In this document: positions 1,781 to 49,765 of the stretch, piece after piece | How positions within the stretch are numbered: position 1 is the stretch's first letter | Layout: each line of letters begins with the position of its first letter | Assembly: GCF_048403405.1 (NCBI RefSeq) | Contig: NZ_CP183129.1 | DNA length: 64,000 bases | Source of the DNA: Escherichia coli | GTDB lineage: Bacteria; Pseudomonadota; Gammaproteobacteria; Enterobacterales; Enterobacteriaceae | Reading direction: 5' to 3' (one strand) | Made by a program: the position numbers and the translations under genes | The notes under the pieces: model-generated | Databases searched by the model: none | What the model saw: the letters and a program-made list of their open reading frames with translations, nothing else | Told to the model about the DNA's origin: nothing

Positions 1781-2998
1781 TTACAGCTGATGATAACCAG
1801 AAAGGAAACGCGCGAACTTACTCAAAGACAGCTCGATATCATCGACACGCGGTAGCGTGACAATGCGGAAGTGATCCGGCCACGGCCAGTTGAATGCCGT
1901 CCCTTGCACCAACAGAACTTTTTCCTGCAACAGGAAATCCAGCACCATTTTCTGATCGTCGTGAATATTAAAGCGTTTGGCGTCGATTTTCGGGAACATG
2001 TACAGCGCACCGCGCGGTTTCACGCAGGAAACGCCCGGAATATCGTTGATCAATTCCCACGCGCGGTTACGCTGCTCATAAAGACGCCCGCCGGGAGTAA
2101 TAAATTCACTGATGCTCTGATAACCGCCTAGTGCAGTCTGAATGGCGTGTTGCGCAGGAACGTTAGCACACAGGCGCATTGAGGCCAGCATTTCCAGACC
2201 TTCGATGTAACCTTTGGCGTGTTTTTTCGGCCCGTTCAACACCATCCACCCCTGACGGAAGCCAGCAACGCGGTACGTTTTCGACAGTCCGTTAAAGGTA
2301 ATGGTCAGCAGATCAGGTGCCAGCGGCGCAATTGAGTGATGCTCAGCGTCGTCGTAGAGAATTTTGTCATAAATTTCATCGGCGAAGATAATGAGATTAT
2401 GCTGGCGTGCAATCTCCACTATCTCCATTAAAAGCTCTTTGGAATATACCGCGCCAGTTGGGTTATTTGGGTTGATAATAACGATCCCACGCGTACGAGG
2501 CGTAATTTTAGCGCGAATATCATCAAGGTCCGGGAACCAGTCAGAGGATTCATCGCAAAGATAATGCACCGCTTTACCGCTGGAGAGCGAAACCGCCGCG
2601 GTCCATAGTGGGTAATCAGGTGCAGGAACCAACATTTCGTCGCCGCTGTTCAGCAATGCCTGCATTGCCTGAACGATAAGCTCCGATACACCATTGCCGA
2701 TGTAAATATCTTCCACGGTAACATCACGCATGCCACGAGCCTGGTAGTGCTGCATGATGGCTTTACGCGCGGAGTAAAGCCCTTTGGAATCGCAATACCC
2801 TTGAGCGGTAGGCAGGTTGCGAATCACGTCAACGAGGATTTCATCTGGCGCGTCAAAACCGAACGGGGCAGGGTTGCCGATGTTCAGTTTCAGTACCTTG
2901 TTACCTTCTTCTTCCAGGCGTTTTGCTTCTTTCAGCACCGGACCACGGATGTCGTAACAGACATTCTCTAATTTGCTGGATTTTTCAATGGGGGACAT
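1781..2998 (-). CDS. alaA: Glutamate-pyruvate aminotransferase AlaA (PLP-dependent class I aminotransferase)
   Basis: 405-aa ORF; PLP-lysine motif region (NGLSKTYRVAGFRQGW); synteny with yfbR and lrhA. Confidence 0.95.
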   Translation of the reverse strand: MSPIEKSSKLENVCYDIRGPVLKEAKRLEEEGNKVLKLNIGNPAPFGFDAPDEILVDVIRNLPTAQGYCDSKGLYSARKAIMQHYQARGMRDVTVEDIYIGNGVSELIVQAMQALLNSGDEMLVPAPDYPLWTAAVSLSSGKAVHYLCDESSDWFPDLDDIRAKITPRTRGIVIINPNNPTGAVYSKELLMEIVEIARQHNLIIFADEIYDKILYDDAEHHSIAPLAPDLLTITFNGLSKTYRVAGFRQGWMVLNGPKKHAKGYIEGLEMLASMRLCANVPAQHAIQTALGGYQSISEFITPGGRLYEQRNRAWELINDIPGVSCVKPRGALYMFPKIDAKRFNIHDDQKMVLDFLLQEKVLLVQGTAFNWPWPDHFRIVTLPRVDDIELSLSKFARFLSGYHQL

Positions 2999-3914
2999 GA
3001 ATCTTGACCTTTTTTGCTGTTATCGCCACTCCCTGCCGTGGAAGTCAGCTTAGAACAATGTACTCCCCCAGGACGGCGTTTTGAAGGTCTGCAGAATAAG
3101 ATTTTGCCAGAGGGGAAGACTCGATTGTGCTGTTAATAACTTAATAATGGCAAAATAATGAGGTGTATATGCTTAGTAATTAATGTTATGTAGTGAATTG
3201 TTCTGATTCTTAATTGTGAGCGTGGTTTTTTTATCTGTAAGATAATTGTTTGAAAATGCCTCGTTTAAGAATTCACTAATGAATCGTGATGATGATATTT
3301 CCGCATTACGGAGAGTTTAACAGCGTGATGATTTCCGAGGTGTCGTAATGGGTGCAAGGTGTGAAACTATTGTTAAGCGGGATTAATGTATGAGGATGAT
3401 GCTAATTAATTATTATTTAATATTCAAAAAGGTTTTGTTGTGCTTATTAATAATAGAAGATTACTTTGCCTAACATAACATAACTTTGCATCAGATAATT
3501 CGCAATGACCCTTATAAATAAAAGGTTTTTGGGGTAAAATGCTCGCATAAATGACGGATCCCTGCTCTTGATGCCGCCTCACCATTGCTGTTTGTACGTG
3601 TTCGCGTATGACCAGCGATGCTGCACGAGAGTGGAACAAGGACTCACATTTACATTTATACAAACACGCGCATGTCATAAATACAAAAGAGTGAGTAACT
3701 TAATAGATATGCGATTCCTGAAGATATATTCTGTGATCTACTTCAGGCATTATAACGGAACAATGTGAGTCGCTTTTTTAGTGCAACTCATATGCATTTT
3801 TACTTTCGTCCGGGTTCCGGATGAAACTGCCAGGGAGGCACATTACAAATGGAATTGCTTGTTTGTGTGTGCACAGCATTAACCAGCTCAGTATGAGCCG
3901 CCAGTAAGTGATAA

Positions 3915-29658: not shown

Positions 29659-30516
29659 ATGATTTATCCTGATGAAGCAATGCTTTACGCACCGGTTGAA
29701 TGGCACGACTGCTCCGAAGGTTTCGAGGACATTCGTTATGAAAAATCTGCCGACGGTATCGCAAAAATCACCATTAATCGTCCGCAGGTGCGCAATGCCT
29801 TCCGTCCTCTGACGGTAAAAGAGATGATCCAGGCACTGGCAGATGCGCGTTATGACGACAACATCGGCGTGATCATTCTGACTGGCGCAGGCGATAAAGC
29901 GTTCTGCTCCGGTGGTGACCAGAAAGTGCGTGGTGATTACGGCGGCTATAAAGATGATTCCGGCGTACATCACCTGAACGTGCTGGACTTCCAGCGTCAG
30001 ATTCGTACCTGTCCGAAACCGGTTGTCGCGATGGTGGCTGGCTACTCCATCGGCGGCGGTCACGTTCTGCACATGATGTGCGACCTGACTATCGCGGCTG
30101 ATAATGCCATCTTCGGCCAGACTGGCCCGAAAGTCGGTTCCTTCGACGGCGGCTGGGGCGCTTCCTACATGGCTCGCATCGTCGGACAGAAAAAAGCGCG
30201 TGAAATCTGGTTCCTGTGCCGTCAGTACGACGCGAAACAGGCGCTGGATATGGGCCTTGTGAACACCGTGGTACCGCTGGCGGATCTGGAAAAAGAAACC
30301 GTCCGTTGGTGCCGCGAAATGCTGCAAAACAGCCCGATGGCGCTGCGCTGCCTGAAAGCTGCGCTGAACGCCGACTGTGACGGTCAGGCAGGTCTGCAGG
30401 AGCTGGCAGGTAACGCCACCATGCTGTTCTATATGACGGAAGAAGGTCAGGAAGGTCGCAACGCTTTCAACCAGAAACGTCAGCCTGATTTCAGCAAATT
30501 TAAACGGAATCCGTAA
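29659..30516 (+). CDS. menB: 1,4-dihydroxy-2-naphthoyl-CoA synthase MenB (crotonase fold)
   Basis: 285-aa ORF matching recalled MenB. Confidence 0.96.
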
Positions 30517-31478
30517 TGCGTAGCGCGCAGGTATACCGCTGGCAGATCCCCATGGACGCGGGGGTGGTTCTGCGCGACAGGCGGTTAAAAACCCGCGACG
30601 GGCTGTATGTTTGCCTGCGTGAGGGCGAGCGCGAAGGGTGGGGGGAGATCTCCCCACTACCGGGCTTCAGCCAGGAAACCTGGGAAGAGGCGCAAAGCGT
30701 GCTGCTTGCCTGGGTAAATAACTGGCTGACAGGCGATTGCGAGCTACCGCAGATGCCTTCCGTCGCCTTTGGCGTAAGCTGTGCATTGGCGGAGCTGGCA
30801 GACACGCTCCCGCAGGCAGCCAATTATCGTGCTGCGCCGCTGTGTAATGGCGATCCTGACGATCTGATCCTCAAACTTGCCGATATGCCTGGCGAGAAAG
30901 TGGCGAAGGTCAAAGTGGGATTGTACGAAGCCGTGCGCGACGGCATGGTGGTCAATCTGTTGCTGGAGGCAATTCCGGATCTGCATTTGCGTCTTGACGC
31001 GAACCGCGCCTGGACGCCGCTGAAAGGCCAGCAGTTTGCCAAATACGTTAACCCGGATTATCGCGACCGCATCGCGTTTCTCGAAGAGCCGTGCAAAACC
31101 CGCGATGATTCGCGAGCGTTTGCCCGTGAAACCGGGATTGCCATTGCCTGGGATGAAAGCCTGCGTGAGCCGGATTTTGCCTTTGTGGCGGAAGAAGGTG
31201 TGCGCGCGGTAGTTATCAAACCCACGCTCACGGGCTGCCTGGATAAAGTACGCGAGCAGGTGCAGGCGGCGCACGCGTTGGGGCTGACGGCGGTGATCAG
31301 TTCTTCTATTGAGTCGAGCTTAGGCTTAACGCAACTGGCGCGGATTGCCGCCTGGTTAACGCCAGAGACTATTCCAGGGCTGGACACGCTGGATCTGATG
31401 CAGGCGCAGCAGGTACGTCGCTGGCCGGGTAGCACGCTGCCTGTCGTGGAAGTTGATGCGCTGGAGCGGTTGTTATGA
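30516..31478 (+). CDS. menC: o-succinylbenzoate synthase MenC (enolase superfamily)
   Basis: 320-aa ORF; overlaps menB and menE. Confidence 0.95.
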
Positions 31479-32830
31479 TCTTCTCTGACTGGCCGTGGCG
31501 TCACTGGCGGCAAGTGCGGGGAGAAGCCATCGCCTTACGTCTTAATGACGAGCAACTCAACTGGCGCGAGCTTTGTGCTCGCGTCGATGAATTAGCCTCC
31601 GGCTTTGCGGCGCAGGGCGTTGTTGAGGGCAGCGGTGTGATGTTGCGGGCGTGGAATACGCCACAAACGCTGCTCGCCTGGCTGGCGTTACTGCAATGCG
31701 GGGCGCGGGTGCTGCCCGTGAACCCTCAGCTGCCGCAACCGTTGCTTGAAGAATTGCTGCCCAATCTGACGCTGCAATTTGCGCTGGTGCCGGATGGGGA
31801 AAACACGTTTCCGGCGTTAACGTCGCTGCACATTCAGCTGGTTGAAGGCGCACATGCCGCTGCGTGGCAGCCGACGCGTCTGTGCTCAATGACGTTGACC
31901 TCCGGCTCTACCGGTTTGCCGAAAGCCGCTGTTCATACTTATCAGGCCCATCTTGCCAGTGCGCAAGGTGTGTTATCGCTGATACCGTTTGGCGAGCACG
32001 ATGACTGGTTGCTCTCTTTACCGCTGTTTCACGTCTCCGGTCAGGGAATTATGTGGCGCTGGTTATACGCTGGTGCGCGGATGACGGTACGTGATAAACA
32101 GCCATTGGAGCAAATGCTGGCAGGCTGTACTCACGCTTCACTGGTGCCAACACAACTCTGGCGTTTGCTGGTTAACCGCAGTTCCGTTTCCCTGAAAGCG
32201 GTGCTACTTGGCGGCGCGGCTATCCCGGTCGAGTTGACGGAACAGGCGCGCGAGCAGGGGATTCGTTGCTTTTGCGGCTATGGTCTGACCGAGTTTGCCT
32301 CCACGGTGTGTGCGAAAGAAGCCGACGGTCTGGCAGACGTTGGTTCGCCGCTGCCGGGTCGGGAAGTGAAAATCGTTAATGATGAAGTGTGGCTGCGGGC
32401 TGCCAGTATGGCTGAAGGTTACTGGCGTAACGGGCAACTGGTTCCACTGGTTAATGACGAAGGCTGGTACGCTACGCGCGATCGCGGTGAGATACATAAT
32501 GGCAAGCTGACCATTGTCGGACGTTTAGATAATCTGTTCTTCAGTGGCGGTGAGGGTATTCAGCCGGAAGAAGTCGAGCGCGTTATTGCTGCACATCCTG
32601 CGGTTTTGCAGGTGTTTATCGTCCCCGTTGCCGACAAGGAGTTTGGTCATCGGCCGGTAGCGGTGGTGGAGTATGACCAGCAAACCGTTGATCTTAGTGA
32701 ATGGGTGAAAGATAAGCTGGCCCGTTTTCAGCAACCGGTGCGTTGGTTAACGCTGCCGCCTGAACTGAAAAACGGCGGCATTAAGATTTCACGTCAGGCG
32801 CTAAAAGAGTGGGTGCAACGCCAGGATTAA
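31475..32830 (+). CDS. menE: o-succinylbenzoate-CoA ligase MenE (adenylate-forming)
   Basis: 451-aa ORF with AMP-binding motif [10 protein letters not shown]. Confidence 0.95.
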
Positions 32831-32882
32831 GAAATCATTAGTTTCACTTCGCAATTTTGCCATTCCATTGCCGTTGATAATA

Positions 32883-32898
32883 GGTTTATCTGTTAATC
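32883..32898 (+). promoter_or_regulatory. Possible PhoP-box-like element upstream of pmrD
   Basis: ggtttatctgttaatc about 40 bp upstream of the pmrD ATG; imperfect match to the direct-repeat (T/G)GTTTA-N5-(T/G)GTTTA PhoP box; eye-matched only. Confidence 0.3.
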
Positions 32899-32939
32899 TG
32901 TAAATTAATGTGAAAATTCTTATCAAGCAGGGTGGTGCA

Positions 32940-33206
32940 ATGGAATGGCTGGTTAAAAAGTCATGCTGTGATAAACAAGATAACAGACATGTACTTAAGC
33001 TTTGTGATGCTGGTGGCACGATAAAAATGATCGCCGAAGTGAAGAGTGACTTCGCCGTGAAAGTGGGGGATTTACTCTCGCCTTTGCAGAATGCGCTTTA
33101 TTGTATTAATCGTGAAAAGCTGCATACGGTGAAAGTCCTCTCGGCAAGCAGTTATAGCCCCGATGAGTGGGAACGGCAGTGTAAAGTGGCAGGGAAAACT
33201 CAGTAA
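32940..33206 (+). CDS. pmrD: Signal-transduction connector protein PmrD
   Basis: 88 aa from [18 protein letters not shown]; the track ORF starts 10 codons upstream. Confidence 0.93.
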
Positions 33207-33586
33207 CGTTGTTTTGTCGTGGGCAGGAAAATCAGCATCAACCCGCTCATAATACAGGCTACTCCCAGTAGTGCTTTCAGCGAAAAAGTCCCTTCCCAGC
33301 CGGGAAGTACCATTGAAGCAATCCATACCAGCACATAACTCATACTGAGCAAGGCATAGGCTTTGCTTAGTGCAAGTTTATGTAGTGTTTTATACCAACA
33401 AAAAACGGAAAGCAGATAACCCAGCAGCCCGAGTAACAGTATCCGGGCATCCAGGCCAAAAGCTAACAACGCCGCGATAAAATCCCATAAGTGCGTCATC
33501 GGCGGCAGATGACTCGCCGCAAAACCCAGGCTTAATTGCGCAGCGGAGGCGATAATGACGCTGAATAATCCCCACATCAGGCCCAT
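33200..33586 (-). CDS. arnF: Undecaprenyl-phosphate-L-Ara4N flippase subunit ArnF
   Basis: 128-aa small hydrophobic protein; last gene of the arn operon; 3' end overlaps the pmrD 3' end by 7 bp. Confidence 0.9.
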
Positions 33587-33921
33587 TACACGGTACTCCC
33601 GAGGATCACAATGCCACCAATAATGAACGCCACCCCACACCAGTGACGCGGCGATACCGGTTCGTGCCACAGTTTTACTGCAGCCAGCGTCACCCAGACA
33701 AAATTCAGACTTAACATCGGGTAGGCAATGCCTACCGGTACGTTCTGCAAGACCAGCAGCCAGAGCACCATGGCAAGACCAAGACAAGCCAGCGCCAGTC
33801 CCAGCCACAGCACGATATGTTTGCGCCGTTTGTTTATCGCCACAAAGCAGGTTGCCTGTTTCTGACACAACTGCCCGGCAACGCTAAGCAAGCTGGCAAA
33901 GACTAATGTTAGCCAGATCAT
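33586..33921 (-). CDS. arnE: Undecaprenyl-phosphate-L-Ara4N flippase subunit ArnE
   Basis: 111-aa small hydrophobic protein between arnT and arnF. Confidence 0.9.
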
Positions 33922-35570
33922 TTGGGACGATACTGAATCAGCACCAGACGCTCCTGACGATCGATGGCATCTGCGGGCGGAATGGCGAGACTGTTGATAT
34001 CTTCATCGCGGTCAACCGAAAGCACGAGTGTAATAATCCCCTCCTGACGATGTTGATTAAGCCAGTTTGCGAACTCATCACCGCTGACAAATCTCCCTTT
34101 CGCATCCGGATAATTAAGGCCGTATTTCAACTCACCTGTCTGGCGATACATGATGATGTCATCGCGTTGCAGGCTCCATGCCAGACCTGCGGCAACACCG
34201 ACGCTATCAGTAAGAATATAGCGGCTTGGCTGAAGTGATTCTTGTGTCATCTCGACAAAAAATTGCGGATGTTTTCCTTCCATGACTCTGTCAGGAATTG
34301 AAAATCCTACCAGCAACGCCAGCCCCAGCGGGCAAAGCGCGGCAAAAGACCAGGTCTTTTCGACGTTTGTTAAGGTGTACCAGCCGAAAAATGCCCATAG
34401 CGAAAAAATCGACCAGGCACAAAAGACTTTATAGCTCTCGAAGGTTTGCCACACTGGCGTGTTCATTGGTCCCCAGGGGGAGACCACAAATGTGGCAATA
34501 ATGCCAGTGACACCAAAAGTGATGTTAATCCAGCCATTAATCCGCAGCGCCAGAGGATTATTTTTTGCTGCCAGCAAAGCGTAATGCGCCATCAGCATTG
34601 CCAGAGGTGCAAAGCAGGAAAGAATATAGGTGGGCAATTTGCCTTTAGCGACGGAGAAAAACAGCAGCGGCATTATCGTCCAGCTCAACAAATAGACGGT
34701 TGCGGAATGCTTGCGGTTTTTCCAGCCTGCGTACAGTGCTCCGGGGAGTAATCCCAGCCACGGCAGGCTACCGGCAATGATGACCGGCAAGTAGTACCAG
34801 AACGGAGCTCTATGCTGAGCATCATCCATTGCAAAGCGTTGAATATGCTCAACCCAGAAAAAATAGTGCCAGAAGTCAGGCTCCCGCTGCGCTATCGCCA
34901 GTCCCCAGGGGAGAACCGTCAGTACGCAACTGATAACCGCCAGCCAGCCGTAAATAAAGAGATCTTTCCAGCGTTTTTGCGTTGCAACCCATGGAAGCAC
35001 GCTTAATACCGGCACGGCAAGGGCGAGAAAACCTTTGGTCATCACCCCCATGCCGCAGGTGATTCCCAGCAGTAAAAATCCTGCGCTTTTGCCTTTCCAC
35101 GTCTGTGCCTGCATTGCCAGCCAGAAGCTGCACATTCCCGCCACCAGCCAGAAGGCAATAAACGGATCGAGCACGGCATAAGTGCCGATGGCATAGACAA
35201 TGAACAATGAGAGGTAAATCACTGCGGCGAGTAATGCCAGACGTTTATCGCGCCATAAGCGCAGAGTAAACCAGGCCACCAGCGCGGCAGTTAACAGGGT
35301 CGCAAAGATAACGCCTGCCCGCACACCAAAGTTATTTGCGCCAAATAGCCATTGCCCAATGCTGTTAATCCAGTATCCGGCAATGGGTTTTTCGAAATAA
35401 CGTAGCCCTAACAGATGGGGCACAATCCAGTCGCCGGATGCCAGCATTTCCCGACTGATTTCCGCATAACGCGTTTCATCGGGTTGCCAGAGCAGACGCG
35501 TGCTGATCGGTAACAGGTAATAGCAGGCAATAAACGCGAAGAGGCCGATAAGGTAACGTACCGATTTCAT
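33918..35570 (-). CDS. arnT: Lipid A 4-amino-4-deoxy-L-arabinose transferase ArnT
   Basis: 550-aa polytopic membrane glycosyltransferase. Confidence 0.96.
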
Positions 35571-36460
35571 CAGCGACTACCCGCAATTTGTTGGCAACCC
35601 AGCCAGCCTTCACGTCCGGCAATATTTCCGCGAACAACTTGCCCGAGCGGTAACGTCCCTGATAACAGTTCGCTTAAAGGGCAAAATGTCACGCCTTCCT
35701 GGGCTGCGCGTTTCAGGAGATCCACAAAATTATGCTGATAAGCGCAGCCTTCAACTTCTGCATGAATGGTATAAACCGGCGTGCCTTTATCTCGCAGGAT
35801 GCGGTTGAGTAACCAACCGTTAAAATCTTCTGCTTTCACATCCCGACCAATCACTTCATCCCAGGTGGGTAAGGTCACCGGAATTTGCGCAGTGCCAGGG
35901 TTTCCTGATTCGAGCAGTGGCCGAAACGGCATGGCCCCACGACAATCGCTGTTGTAGCGCAAATGGAACGCTTCTTTTGCTTCGATCACCTGCTGGTCGG
36001 CACGCCAGCCCGCAGCGGCAGAACAGGTTACCGGTTGACCTATGATCTCTTCCAGGGTGCGAAGGCCGCGTGCAATATCGTCGACCAATGTTTGCCGATC
36101 CCAGTTACCGCTATGGGCTTGCCAGGCATGGTGATCCCAGGCGTGCAGGCCGACTTCGTGATGTTTAGCTGCTTCACGAATGATATCGGCATTGGCATGA
36201 CCAATCTCTTTACCCGGCCAGGCCGTACCTGCCAGTAAAATATCCCAGCCATAAAGCGATGCCGCGTTTGAGCGCAGCATCTTCCACAAAAACTGTGGCT
36301 TCACCAGTCGCCAGAGATGGCGGCCCATATTGTCCGGGCCGACGCTGAAAAAAATGCTGGCCTGAATATTATGCTTACTCAAGATTTCCAGCAGACGCGG
36401 CACGCCTTCACGGGTGCCACGAAAGGTATCGACATCAATGCGTAAGCCGACTTTGGTCAT
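35570..36460 (-). CDS. arnD: Und-P-L-Ara4FN deformylase ArnD
   Basis: 296-aa polysaccharide-deacetylase-fold ORF. Confidence 0.95.
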
Positions 36461-38438
36461 GATGGTTTATCCGTAAGATCAACGGTGCGCAGGAAGAAAT
36501 CTAGCGTTTCGTCGATGGTTTCCTGCATATCAATTTTGGGTTCCCAGTCCAGGCAGCGGCGGGCATTGCGGATGCTCGGTTTACGATGCTCTACGTCCTG
36601 ATATCCTTTGCCGTAGTAGCTGCTACTTTCGACAACACGAAAGCCCGCAAACGGTGGGAAGTGATGGCGCAGCGGATGTTTTTCGAAGCTCGCCAGCAGC
36701 ATCTCGCCCAGTTCCTCAATGCTCGCTTCGTTCTCAGGATTGCCAATGTTGATAATTTCGCCGTCGCAGCGATTTCCCGCATTTTCGATAATGCGGTACA
36801 ACGCCTCGATACCATCCCGGATATCAGTAAAGCAGCGTTTTTGTTTTCCGCCATCAATTAGCTTAATTGGTGAACCTTCTACCAGATTGAGAATGAGTTG
36901 CGTAATAGCGCGGGAGCTGCCGATTCGTGCCGCATTAAGGTTATCCAGTCGTGGTCCCATCCAGTTAAACGGGCGGAAGAGGGTAAACTGTAAACCCTCT
37001 TTTTCGCCATAGGCCCAGATAACCCGATCAAGTAATTGTTTAGACACCGAATAAATCCAGCGTGGTTTATTCACCGGGCCGACGATTAAATTAGAATGAT
37101 CCTCATCGAAGTATTTATCGTTACACATCCCATAAACTTCTGAAGTCGACGGGAAGATGATTCGCTTACGGTACTTCACGCAGTAGCGGATAATGCGCAG
37201 ATTCTCTTCAAAATCGAGTTCAAATACGCGCAGCGGGTTGCGGGTATATTCAATCGGCGTGGCTATCGCCACCAGCGGCAACACGACATCACATTTTTTG
37301 ACGTGATACTCAATCCATTCGGAATGAATACTGATATCGCCTTCGACAAAGTGAAAATGCGGATGATTCAGAAAACGGCTTATCGCATCGCTGCCAATAT
37401 CCAGACCGTAAACTTCATAATGATCTTCGCGCAGCAGGCGTTCTGTCAGATGGTTGCCAATAAAGCCATTCACCCCGAGGATGAGTACCCGCGTACGGCG
37501 TCGGGCGGTGCAGGCAGGCTGGCTATTCAAGCGTGAACCTTGCACCAGGCCCAGCGTCTGCGCTAATTGCGAGCCCTGCATAGTAATGCCGTCGCCCGCC
37601 TGTCCGGTGACGATTTCCAGCGCGCCATCGCCACAGGCAATCAGCAGTGGCGCTACAGAAATCACCCTCCCCGGCTGTGCTTTGCTGGCATGAGGATGAA
37701 CACGCGACGACCAGACGGTGAATTTCTGATTGCCAACATAGCTGAAGGCACCCGGCCACGGATCGGCAACGGCACGCACCATGTTGTGCAGTACAGATGC
37801 CGGCTTATGCCATTCGAGGAAACTGTCATCCGGCGTTCTGCGACCAAAACAGGTGGCTTCGTTTTCGCGCTGGGCGATTTCCAGAATATTACCGTGTTTA
37901 ATGGCGGGTAATGTCTGTTCCAGTAGCTGGCGCGCGGCATGGCACAATTTATGATGCAGCGTAATAGCGATATCGTCTGGCGCAATGGCAATGCGCAGTT
38001 GCGCCACAATGGCCCCGGCATCGGCACGTTTCACCATTCGGTGCAATGTAACGCCAGTTTCCGTTTCACCGTTCACCAGCACCCAGTTCAGCGGCGCGCG
38101 ACCACGATATTTTGGTAACAGCGAACCATGCAGATTAAATGCACCTGCGGGAGCGAGCTGCAAAATTTCGTCGCAAATAAGATGGCGATAATAAAAAGAA
38201 AAAATCACATCAGGTGATAGTTGGGCAATGCGTTCCACCCACAGCGGATGATTAACGTTATCTGGCGCATAAACCGGAATGCCTCTTTCCGCCGCCAGAC
38301 GAGCTACCGAACCATAAAAGGCTTTTTCACCGGGATTATCAGTATGAGTAAAAATAGCGCTAATTTCGTAACCGGCAGCCAGCAGGGCTTCAATACCGAG
38401 GCATCCCATATCGTGGTAGGCAAAAACGACGGTTTTCA

Positions 38439-38439
<1 letters not shown>
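36457..38439 (-). CDS. arnA: Bifunctional UDP-glucuronate decarboxylase / UDP-Ara4N formyltransferase ArnA
   Basis: 660-aa ORF; N-terminal formyltransferase domain and C-terminal NAD-binding Rossmann fold ([10 protein letters not shown]). Confidence 0.97.
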
Positions 38440-39410
<971 letters not shown>

Positions 39411-40568
39411 TTATTGTCCTGCGAGTTGCTGAAGGGCTGTGATGACGCGGTCGGCATCGGCGGTAGTCATATCCGGAAACAGCGGCAACGAACAGATGCG
39501 TTCGCTATTCCATTCGGTATTCGGTAACGACAGCGTGGGAAAACGCTCGCGATAATATTTTTGTGTGTGAGCGGCGCGGAAATGTAACCCGGTACCAATA
39601 CCTCTTTCTTTTAACGCTTCCATCAACGCATCGCGACTGATACCACAACGTTGTTCATCGACACGAATAATAAACAGATGCCAGGCGTGAACGTGCGGCC
39701 AGGCGGGAAGGCTTAATGGCTGAAAGGGGAGAGCTGCCAGTGCTTGCTGATATTGCTGGGCAATTTCGCGCCGACGGGTGTTGAGGTGCTCTAATTTTGC
39801 TAACTGTGTCAGGGCAATCGCGGCGTTAATATCGGTCAGATTGTACTTATAGCCCGGTGTTAAGACTTCAGCTTGCGGTGCACGGCCCCAGGTTTGTCTG
39901 TCATAGGCATCGACACCCAGACCGTGAAATTTCAGCATCCGTAGCTGGCGGGCAAGGTTTTCATTATCTGTAACAATCAGGCCACCTTCCGCACAGGTAA
40001 TATTTTTGATGGCGTGAAACGAAAAAATAGCGGTACCTTTTGTGCCAATATGTCGCCCTTTGTAATACGTACCGACGGCATGGGCAGCATCTTCGATAAC
40101 TGCGATGCCGTAACGTTCGCCAATGGCGCGAATGGCGTCAATATCTGCTGGCGCACCGGCATAATGCACCGGAATGATGGCTTTAGTGCGTGGCGTAATG
40201 GCTGACTCGATCGCTTCAGGCGTGACCATCAGCGTATCGTGGTCGACATCCACCATTACCGGCGTTGCACCCAACAAGGAAATCATATTGAGGGTTGAAA
40301 CCCAGGTCAGGGAAGGCGTAATCACTTCATCGCCCTTGCCAATTTCCAACGCCATTAGCGTGATATGCATTCCGGCGGTGGCTGAACTGACCGCGATGGC
40401 ATGCTGATTTCCCGTCAACTGGCAAAAGGCTTGTTCAAGCGCCTGATTCTTCGGACCGGTTGTGATCCAACCGGATTCGAGAACCTCTTTAACTGCAGCG
40501 AGTTCCTCCACGCCCATTGCTGGTCGCGAAAAAGGCAAAAATTCTGACATTGCTTTTCCTTCCGCCAT
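39411..40568 (-). CDS. arnB: UDP-4-amino-4-deoxy-L-arabinose aminotransferase ArnB (PLP-dependent)
   Basis: 385 aa from [10 protein letters not shown] (alternative in-frame starts at 40583 GTG and 40550 ATG); first gene of arnBCADTEF. Confidence 0.94.
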
Positions 40569-40648: not shown

Positions 40649-40665
40649 ATTAACTTAACCTTAAG
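40649..40665 (-). promoter_or_regulatory. Putative PmrA (BasR) box upstream of arnB
   Basis: Minus-strand sequence CTTAAG-GTTAA-GTTAAT is a hexamer-N5-hexamer direct repeat resembling the PmrA consensus (YTTAAK-N5-YTTAAK), about 80 bp upstream of the arnB ATG. Confidence 0.4.
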
Positions 40666-48475: not shown

Positions 48476-48649
48476 TTAGTGGTTATTCGCTGCCAGATCG
48501 GCTTCGCTTAGCTGGGTGGCTGCGAGCACCAGGTCACGATCAATGCCCTGTTCCAGCATGCGCAAAGCAATTTTAATGGCTTGTTCATGCATGCCTTCCT
48601 GCCAGCCAATTTGGTGTCCTTCCTGCCGTAGCCGTTCAGCAATAGTCAT
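48476..48649 (-). CDS. ypaA: YpaA-like small ORF: stand-alone partial duplicate of the C-terminal tail of the adjacent Rpn-family gene
   Basis: Hand translation of the minus strand gives a 57-aa ORF ([57 protein letters not shown]), below the track's length cutoff; strong SD aaggagag 7 nt upstream; nucleotide-level direct repeat of the yfaD 3' end. Confidence 0.7.
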   Translation of the reverse strand: MTIAERLRQEGHQIGWQEGMHEQAIKIALRMLEQGIDRDLVLAATQLSEADLAANNH

Positions 48650-48661
48650 TAATCTCTCCTT

Positions 48662-49621
48662 TTAATGACCGTTCGGAATATCAGCATCAGTGAGTTGGGT
48701 TGTCGCCAGCACAATCTCACGTTCAAAGCCCTGTTCCAGCATGCGCAAGGCAATTTTAATGGCTTGTTCATGCATACCTTCTACTTTGCCTTTCTGCAAC
48801 CCCTCCAATTTCCCCTCCTGCCAACCTTCAATTTTACCTTCCTGCCAGCCAATTTGATGTCCTTCCTGCCGCAGCCGTTCAGCAATAGTCATTAATCTCT
48901 CCTTTTGTAGTGGTGAACGTTCGGCAATCTCCTCAATAAAACGGGTGAAACGGGAGGTATCGCCGCATTGCAGCAGGTAATTAAACAGCGTTTGTAGCTG
49001 GCTGTCATTAGTGAAGCCTCTAACCAAAAGCGTGGTGATCCTGTCGACCATACCGATTAAATCGCGGTCGCGAATATGCTTTTGAATCAGTTCCAGCAGA
49101 GCTATACGCCGATGTTGCATGATCTCATCGTCAGGTACGATGGTGATATCCACCAACGGAAAAGCTTCGGTGTACAACTGCCGGGCAAGTTGCGGATCGT
49201 CAAACTCATCCAGCCAGTTGAGTGAGTACGGGTAGGGCGAGGTTTCGCCATGATAAAACAGCAATGGCACCACCAGCGGAACTCTGTCATAGCCTTTATC
49301 CAGGTGACGCTGCATGGCGGCAGTGGCATAGCGCATTAGCCGAAAAGCCATATTCTTTTCTGCAGAGCTTTGATGTTCAATCACGCAGTAGATATAGCCT
49401 TCACCGTCGCTGGTTTCCACAGACCACAAAACATCCGAGTAGTAAGCGCGTAAACTTTTTTCAATAAAGCTGGTGGGTTCCAGGCGTAAAGTTTGCAGGT
49501 TGCAAAGCTTGCGCAGCGGCTCTGGTAGATGTATTTCCAGAAAATCCCGAGCGGTTTCGGGTGTGAACATAAAGGTTTTAAACACCGCATCATGCGGGGA
49601 GGAGGTTGTTGATTCGGTCAT
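48662..49621 (-). CDS. yfaD: Rpn-family recombination-promoting nuclease (PDDEXK / transposase_31-like) YfaD/RpnE
   Basis: 319-aa ORF; N-terminal PD-(D/E)xK-type region ([24 protein letters not shown]) and C-terminal GWQEGK(I/L)EG repeats. Confidence 0.88.
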
Positions 49622-49765
49622 GGTTGTCCGTCACCTGATATTTATGATGACGCGACATTACGGTTATCCCAGGCCTTTGACATCTGCCAGTTTCAGCCTT
49701 TGCGAGACGTTTTCAGAGGAATTTTCACTGCGTTGCAACGCATACATTGGGCACGGAATCGTGTA

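Follow-up and report, generated by a model that had tools for sequence, protein, structure and literature searches.

Organization of the pmrD-arnF locus

The window, i.e., the whole stretch of 64,000 nucleotides analysed here, belongs to the E. coli chromosome and carries two convergent genes, pmrD and arnF, whose coding sequences run into each other at their 3' ends. On the plus strand, pmrD (32940..33206) encodes the 88-aa PhoP-activated connector PmrD, and on the minus strand arnF (33200..33586) encodes a protein of 128 aa and stands last in the arnBCADTEF operon, which is annotated at 33200..40550 on the same strand and is transcribed towards pmrD. Both genes are named as such in the RefSeq annotation and are recognized by NCBIfam equivalog models, PmrD scoring 167 bits against a cut-off of 96 (NF011994) and ArnF 140 bits against a cut-off of 99 (NF002816), with the ArnF family profile matching residues 4-122 and the final six residues (TTKQRY) lying outside it. 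ArnE, encoded upstream of arnF by an annotated gene at 33586..33921 (minus strand), scored 214 bits with its own NCBIfam model.

The heptamer TCAGTAA at 33200..33206 is common to both coding sequences, which therefore overlap by exactly 7 bp. The 3' codons of pmrD are GGG AAA ACT CAG TAA, with the stop codon TAA at 33204-33206, and those of arnF, read on the minus strand, are AAA CAA CGT TAC TGA, with the stop codon TGA being the reverse complement of 33200-33202. The middle base of the heptamer, G, falls in both of the codons that precede the stops, CAG (Gln88 of PmrD) and TAC (Tyr128 of ArnF). Identical coordinates are found for the two genes in the RefSeq annotation of strain 2012C-4221, in which the 870 bp around the junction are 100% identical to the window, and the 7-bp overlap is also present in the annotation of K-12 MG1655 (arnF 2372892..2373278, pmrD 2373272..2373538). 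The profile matches, the stop codons and RefSeq thus all describe a convergent, overlapping pair, and the sequence, the profiles and the annotation agree with the original prediction in its gene names, its strands, its stops and its figure of 7 bp. The overlap is confirmed as real and is not new, since it is part of the reference annotation.

Within the operon, arnT and arnE overlap by 4 bp (33918-33921) and arnE overlaps the start of arnF by 1 bp at 33586 (TAATG), both being typical translational-coupling junctions. About 100 nt upstream of arnB, a consensus scan found a direct repeat resembling a PmrA/BasR box, CTTAAGGTTAAGTTAAT (40649..40665, minus strand), a candidate PmrA box by the published consensus and presumably the PmrA-dependent element of the arn promoter; the number of PmrA-box matches across the window is not above chance. 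Upstream of pmrD, a candidate PhoP box, CGTTGATAATAGGTTTA (32872..32888, plus strand), is located about 50 nt before the ATG and is a weak match, with two mismatches to the consensus KGTTTA-N5-KGTTTA.

Frequency of convergent overlaps

The frequency of overlap was determined among convergent pairs, as asking whether a coding-sequence overlap occurs more often than by chance is the wrong test for such a feature. We counted 32 pairs, eight in the window and 24 in three arbitrary 50-kb samples of the K-12 genome, of which four overlap (one of the eight in the window and three of the 24 in K-12) and a further two, cueR/ybbJ and ydhK/sodC in the K-12 samples, abut with a gap of 0 bp, so that overlap and abutment together account for 6/32. 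Inside the window pmrD/arnF is the sole overlapping convergent pair, the other seven being spaced by 38-70 bp, and the three K-12 overlaps are those of purR/punR (4 bp), yhbQ/yhbS (14 bp) and yrbL/mtgA (4 bp). At about one pair in eight, convergent overlap is a minority class yet commonplace.

The three K-12 pairs resemble pmrD/arnF in that the stops on opposite strands lie inside the last codons of the partner, in having no intergenic terminator and in being listed in Table 1 of the ExcludonFinder study (PMC12288877). They differ from it in two respects: pmrD and arnF belong to one pathway, in which PmrD regulates PmrA and PmrA activates arn, and arnF is the end of an inducible operon of 7.4 kb. 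Another likeness is found in pmrR-basS (pmrB), where a small gene of the PmrA regulon likewise runs into the 3' end of the gene facing it; that locus is outside the window and, unlike pmrD/arnF, has a longer overlap, reported as 25 bp (PMC8004244). It too is listed as an excludon (PMC12288877).

Conservation of the junction

The 870-bp stretch around the junction is present in 5417 of 5426 complete E. coli genomes, and the 81-bp junction itself is found at an identity of at least 90% in 5321 of them. The most divergent E. coli junction that we examined, that of WL297 (91%), keeps the 7-bp overlap, and the same ends of pmrD and arnF are found in every examined Escherichia locus with an intact arnF. 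In E. albertii the overlap is also 7 bp and reads TCAGTAG. In Salmonella enterica and S. diarizonae the overlap is one of 6 bp (TCATGA) with other C-terminal residues, and in three genomes of the Citrobacter amalonaticus type it is replaced by a gap of 3-9 bp. More distant genes of the PmrD family are located away from arnF, as in Pseudocitrobacter, in Intestinirhabdus alba and in several metagenomic representatives.

The C-terminal residues also vary between genera, with GKTQ, RKPS or HGKV at the end of PmrD and KQRY, PARS or QKTR at the end of ArnF. Since both the exact geometry and the tail residues differ from genus to genus, the position of the stops would appear to have drifted, which argues against a constrained element at the junction. 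By these comparisons, the conserved trait is the very tight tail-to-tail packing within the menE-pmrD-arnF synteny and not the overlap itself, and drift of this sort is to be expected of C-terminal tails that are under no constraint. Such near-zero spacing, ranging from a 7-bp overlap to a 9-bp gap in Escherichia, Salmonella and C. amalonaticus, could nevertheless reflect selection over inertia.

Transcription beyond the two stop codons

Terminators were sought on both strands by a consensus scan of positions 30000-36000 and by sliding 45-nt folds. The scan found eight terminator-like sites, against an expectation of 7.5 in shuffled sequence, and the hits are situated before the stops on their respective strands. 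None of them lies on the minus strand across the 3.2 kb past the arnF stop; on the plus strand the 1.2 kb past the pmrD stop are likewise free of such sites, as far as a weak 5-bp stem at 34447. The scan found no such site between the end of menE (32830) and the start of pmrD (32940) either, nor on the plus strand from there until the same stem at 34447, and transcripts of the menFDHBCE operon may consequently read through pmrD into antisense of arnF.

pmrD and arnF are therefore opposite-strand neighbours with no terminator found between them, which is the arrangement of an excludon. The original prediction held that the two convergent transcripts necessarily share their 3' ends, and the logic of this is sound, as each complete mRNA has to carry its own stop codon and the two must be complementary there; the 7 nt it gave is an understatement, because in the absence of terminator-like sites after both stops the overlap of the transcripts should be far longer, with each mRNA continuing antisense into the partner gene.

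The continuation of the arn mRNA (32882..33199, minus strand) is untranslated and lies antisense to the promoter-proximal region of pmrD as well as to its entire coding sequence. Rich in C and poor in G, it has a C/G ratio of 1.1-2.7 (mostly 1.4-2.7) that peaks at 1.9-2.7 over 33079->32882; the window has a median ratio of 1.0, a 95th percentile of 1.73 and a 99th percentile of 2.4, which places the maximum of the antisense-pmrD RNA at about the 99th percentile. The untranslated continuation of the pmrD mRNA (33207..33364, plus strand), antisense to the 3' part of arnF, is moderately C-rich, with a ratio of 1.1-1.7. As far as composition goes, the RNA antisense to pmrD is of the kind associated with Rho-dependent termination, namely C-rich, G-poor, unstructured and untranslated RNA past a stop codon. 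On the strength of this composition, both the arn and the pmrD mRNAs are probably ended by Rho inside or beyond the partner gene.

The overlap as a probable by-product of gene packing

The explanation that we favour, and consider likely, is that this is an ordinary annotated overlap of convergent coding sequences which arose as a neutral by-product of packing, with Rho or trimming ending both mRNAs and with any interference between them being modest. A small, lineage-specific gene, pmrD, would have been packed tail-to-tail against arnF at the end of the arn operon, and two weakly conserved C-terminal tails would have come to run two codons into each other, so that a terminator would not fit between the genes, nor is there one nearby. 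Each mRNA would then extend into the partner gene as untranslated antisense RNA, and this read-through RNA would be ended by Rho-dependent termination or by 3' trimming. We infer that any effect of the overlap on expression is modest and that no dedicated regulatory device is involved. Counting against a neutral reading is the fact that pmrD and arn serve a common pathway and can be co-induced.

As it stands, the overlap matters little, since it is annotated and the overlap of the transcripts has been catalogued, both thus being already known: in ExcludonFinder (NAR 2025, PMC12288877), arnF-pmrD is one of 165 convergent transcript overlaps in MG1655, is given in Table 1 as overlapping in at least 50% of 58 MG1655 RNA-seq samples, and is singled out as a same-pathway pair.

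Possible interference between arn and pmrD transcription

The original prediction also saw room for antisense interference at this junction, and the alternative that follows from it is a functional convergent excludon, in which read-through of the PmrA-activated arn operon lowers PmrD in cis, be it by RNA polymerase collision, by promoter occlusion or by RNase III cleavage of the sense/antisense duplex. We regard this as unlikely, though it is the alternative with the most in its favour. With no terminator between the genes, arn polymerases must enter pmrD, and as pmrD is merely 267 bp long and the composition best suited to the loading of Rho occurs near its 5' end, the read-through may extend across all of pmrD and the promoter in front of it. 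The transcript overlap recorded in at least half of the RNA-seq samples (PMC12288877) and the tight packing that is kept in the three genera with pmrD beside arnF are consistent with such a function. Convergent excludons are described as having overlapping 3' regions and mutually exclusive expression, the latter through transcriptional interference and RNase III (PMC12288877); for arnF-pmrD, by comparison, what that study documents is the transcript overlap only. Membership of the list also carries limited weight, since all seven of our K-12 sample pairs that are spaced by 11 bp or less appear on it, and listing is thus near-automatic for genes with such geometry, including zero or negative spacing.

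The overlap of yhbQ and yhbS, a pair with overlapping coding sequences, is among the RNase III double-stranded RNA duplexes captured with p19 in the accessible part of that study (PMC7373196), which indicates that pairs of this kind can form RNase III substrates. In the accessible part of the text of the same supplement, in which the yhbQ-yhbS control is present, there is no mention of pmrD, arnF, b2258 or b2259. A search for mapped 3' ends and transcription units likewise found neither pmrD nor arnF in the accessible part of the supplementary text of a Term-seq study (PMC7815308) or of SMRT-Cappable-seq (PMC6131387). Both genes are poorly expressed in standard media. A search of the accessible literature for studies testing whether arn transcription lowers pmrD expression found none, and it returned no data on reciprocal expression of the two genes.

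The logical output of such interference, with active PmrA lowering PmrD, would be the same as that of a feedback known from Salmonella, where phosphorylated PmrA represses the transcription of pmrD, and the difference is in the mechanism, which there is repression and not arn read-through (PMC3140997, PMC2565834). PmrA does not repress pmrD in Klebsiella (PMC3140997, PMC2565834), and in E. coli the feedback loop is described as absent (PMC3140997), which is a further point against the excludon. In its favour, a good PmrA box is missing from the E. coli pmrD promoter, where the best match of a simple scan (32826-32842) has two mismatches and is at chance level; the equivalent place in the Salmonella promoter also has a two-mismatch match, not above chance. 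For Salmonella, Kato et al. in 2003 reportedly found that mutation of the PmrA site at the pmrD promoter abolished the repression by PmrA and that the arn operon was not needed; if so, little would be left there for an antisense mechanism to explain.

A stronger form of this alternative, to which we give still less credence, is that the terminator-less abutment of arnF and pmrD in Escherichia and Salmonella is a selected, cis-acting brake on the synthesis of PmrD. Were it true, PmrA-activated arn polymerases and the antisense RNA would sweep the 267-bp pmrD gene, adding to the PhoP-PmrD-PmrA connector circuit a second layer of feedback that does not depend on the pmrD promoter and that should be missing from the lineages with pmrD away from arnF (Pseudocitrobacter, Intestinirhabdus). 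If arn read-through does damp pmrD, this would be a small cis-acting feedback in the textbook connector circuit of polymyxin resistance, and the pair would join the small number of excludons within one pathway whose physiological logic is clear.

Improbable alternatives: a shared terminator or a misplaced stop

The original prediction also saw room for coupled termination, but it is very improbable that the two transcripts share a bidirectional intrinsic terminator at the junction. Convergent E. coli genes are often separated by such a terminator, and at five of the seven other convergent junctions of the window at least one strand can form a hairpin of -20 to -25 kcal/mol. Against this, the best 45-nt fold at the pmrD/arnF junction reaches only -9.0/-10.7 kcal/mol on the two strands, the weakest of the eight convergent junctions in the window (-13.5 to -25.3 kcal/mol for the best folds of the other seven), and local folding revealed neither a G+C-rich hairpin nor the flanking U and A tracts that would be expected of a bidirectional intrinsic terminator. 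Folds of 200-300 nt around the junction gave z-scores against shuffled sequence of +0.9 to +1.1 on the two strands, with no unusual structure, and a search of 32500-34000 against Rfam returned 0 matches at E<=1. As the scan is also empty past both stops, a shared intrinsic terminator is not supported and appears effectively refuted by the sequence, which has the negative practical value that coupled termination can be dropped.

The one terminator-like hairpin nearby, CTTCCCGGCTGGGAAG followed by GGGACTTTTTC, is inside arnF, at 33307..33292 on the minus strand and about 90 nt before the stop. The conserved LPGWEG motif is encoded there, and the hairpin is present in E. albertii but not in Salmonella. 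We considered whether this hairpin and its T-run could be an early terminator of arn and rejected the idea, as termination there would truncate arnF, the sequence codes for LPGWEG and the hairpin is not found in Salmonella; it is probably a chance match.

An annotation artefact, in which one of the stops is not the real end of its protein, has virtually no probability and is effectively ruled out, since apart from the poor conservation of the C-terminal tails between genera nothing speaks for it, while the reading frames fix the stops, the equivalog profiles cover nearly the full length of both proteins and the ends are the same in all examined Escherichia loci with an intact arnF.

Variant and atypical loci

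A number of genomes depart from the usual arrangement. In E. coli OkiPb01700 (NZ_AP042594.1) the 3' end of pmrD is interrupted by an IS3-family element (locus positions 975-2934), which truncates the gene to 219 bp and places it about 1.3 kb from arnF; this strain is a natural variant without the overlap. E. coli SCPM-O-B-8794, a GTDB species representative, has lost the arn operon by deletion, with the last 22 codons of arnF remaining (3180-3420); here the stop of pmrD has moved and the protein ends in ...KSANNVVLQ*, i.e., the junction was altered once arnF was lost. In Escherichia sp. MOD1-EC7003 (3260-3720) arnF has a premature stop (VLV*ITSM) and arnT-like sequence takes the place of its 5' part, pointing to an arn operon in decay that has undergone an internal deletion, and the TCAGTAA junction is intact despite the broken gene. 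The arnF homology of Salmonella arizonae CCUG 6322T (3256-3626) is split across three reading frames, to be attributed either to frameshifts, making it a pseudogene, or to assembly errors.

Other records concern the placement of PmrD-family genes. The metagenome-assembled genome 'Citrobacter sp.' HRGM_Genome_0066 includes a 3.1-kb contig with pmrD and arnF of the E. coli type (98% identity) and also a 235-kb contig with a Citrobacter-type pmrD (61%), and E. coli contamination of the bin would seem to account for the short contig. An 88-aa PmrD-family protein is encoded on short contigs named as Klebsiella pneumoniae and Salmonella enterica in a different context (2501-3192), where its gene overlaps a co-directional ORF of 142 aa by 4 bp and may be located on a mobile element.

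Elsewhere in the window, elaD (22550-23762) is annotated as a frameshifted pseudogene in this strain, and between yfaU and glpC (48476-49681) there are a transposase gene of the ISNCY family and a hypothetical gene that is truncated.
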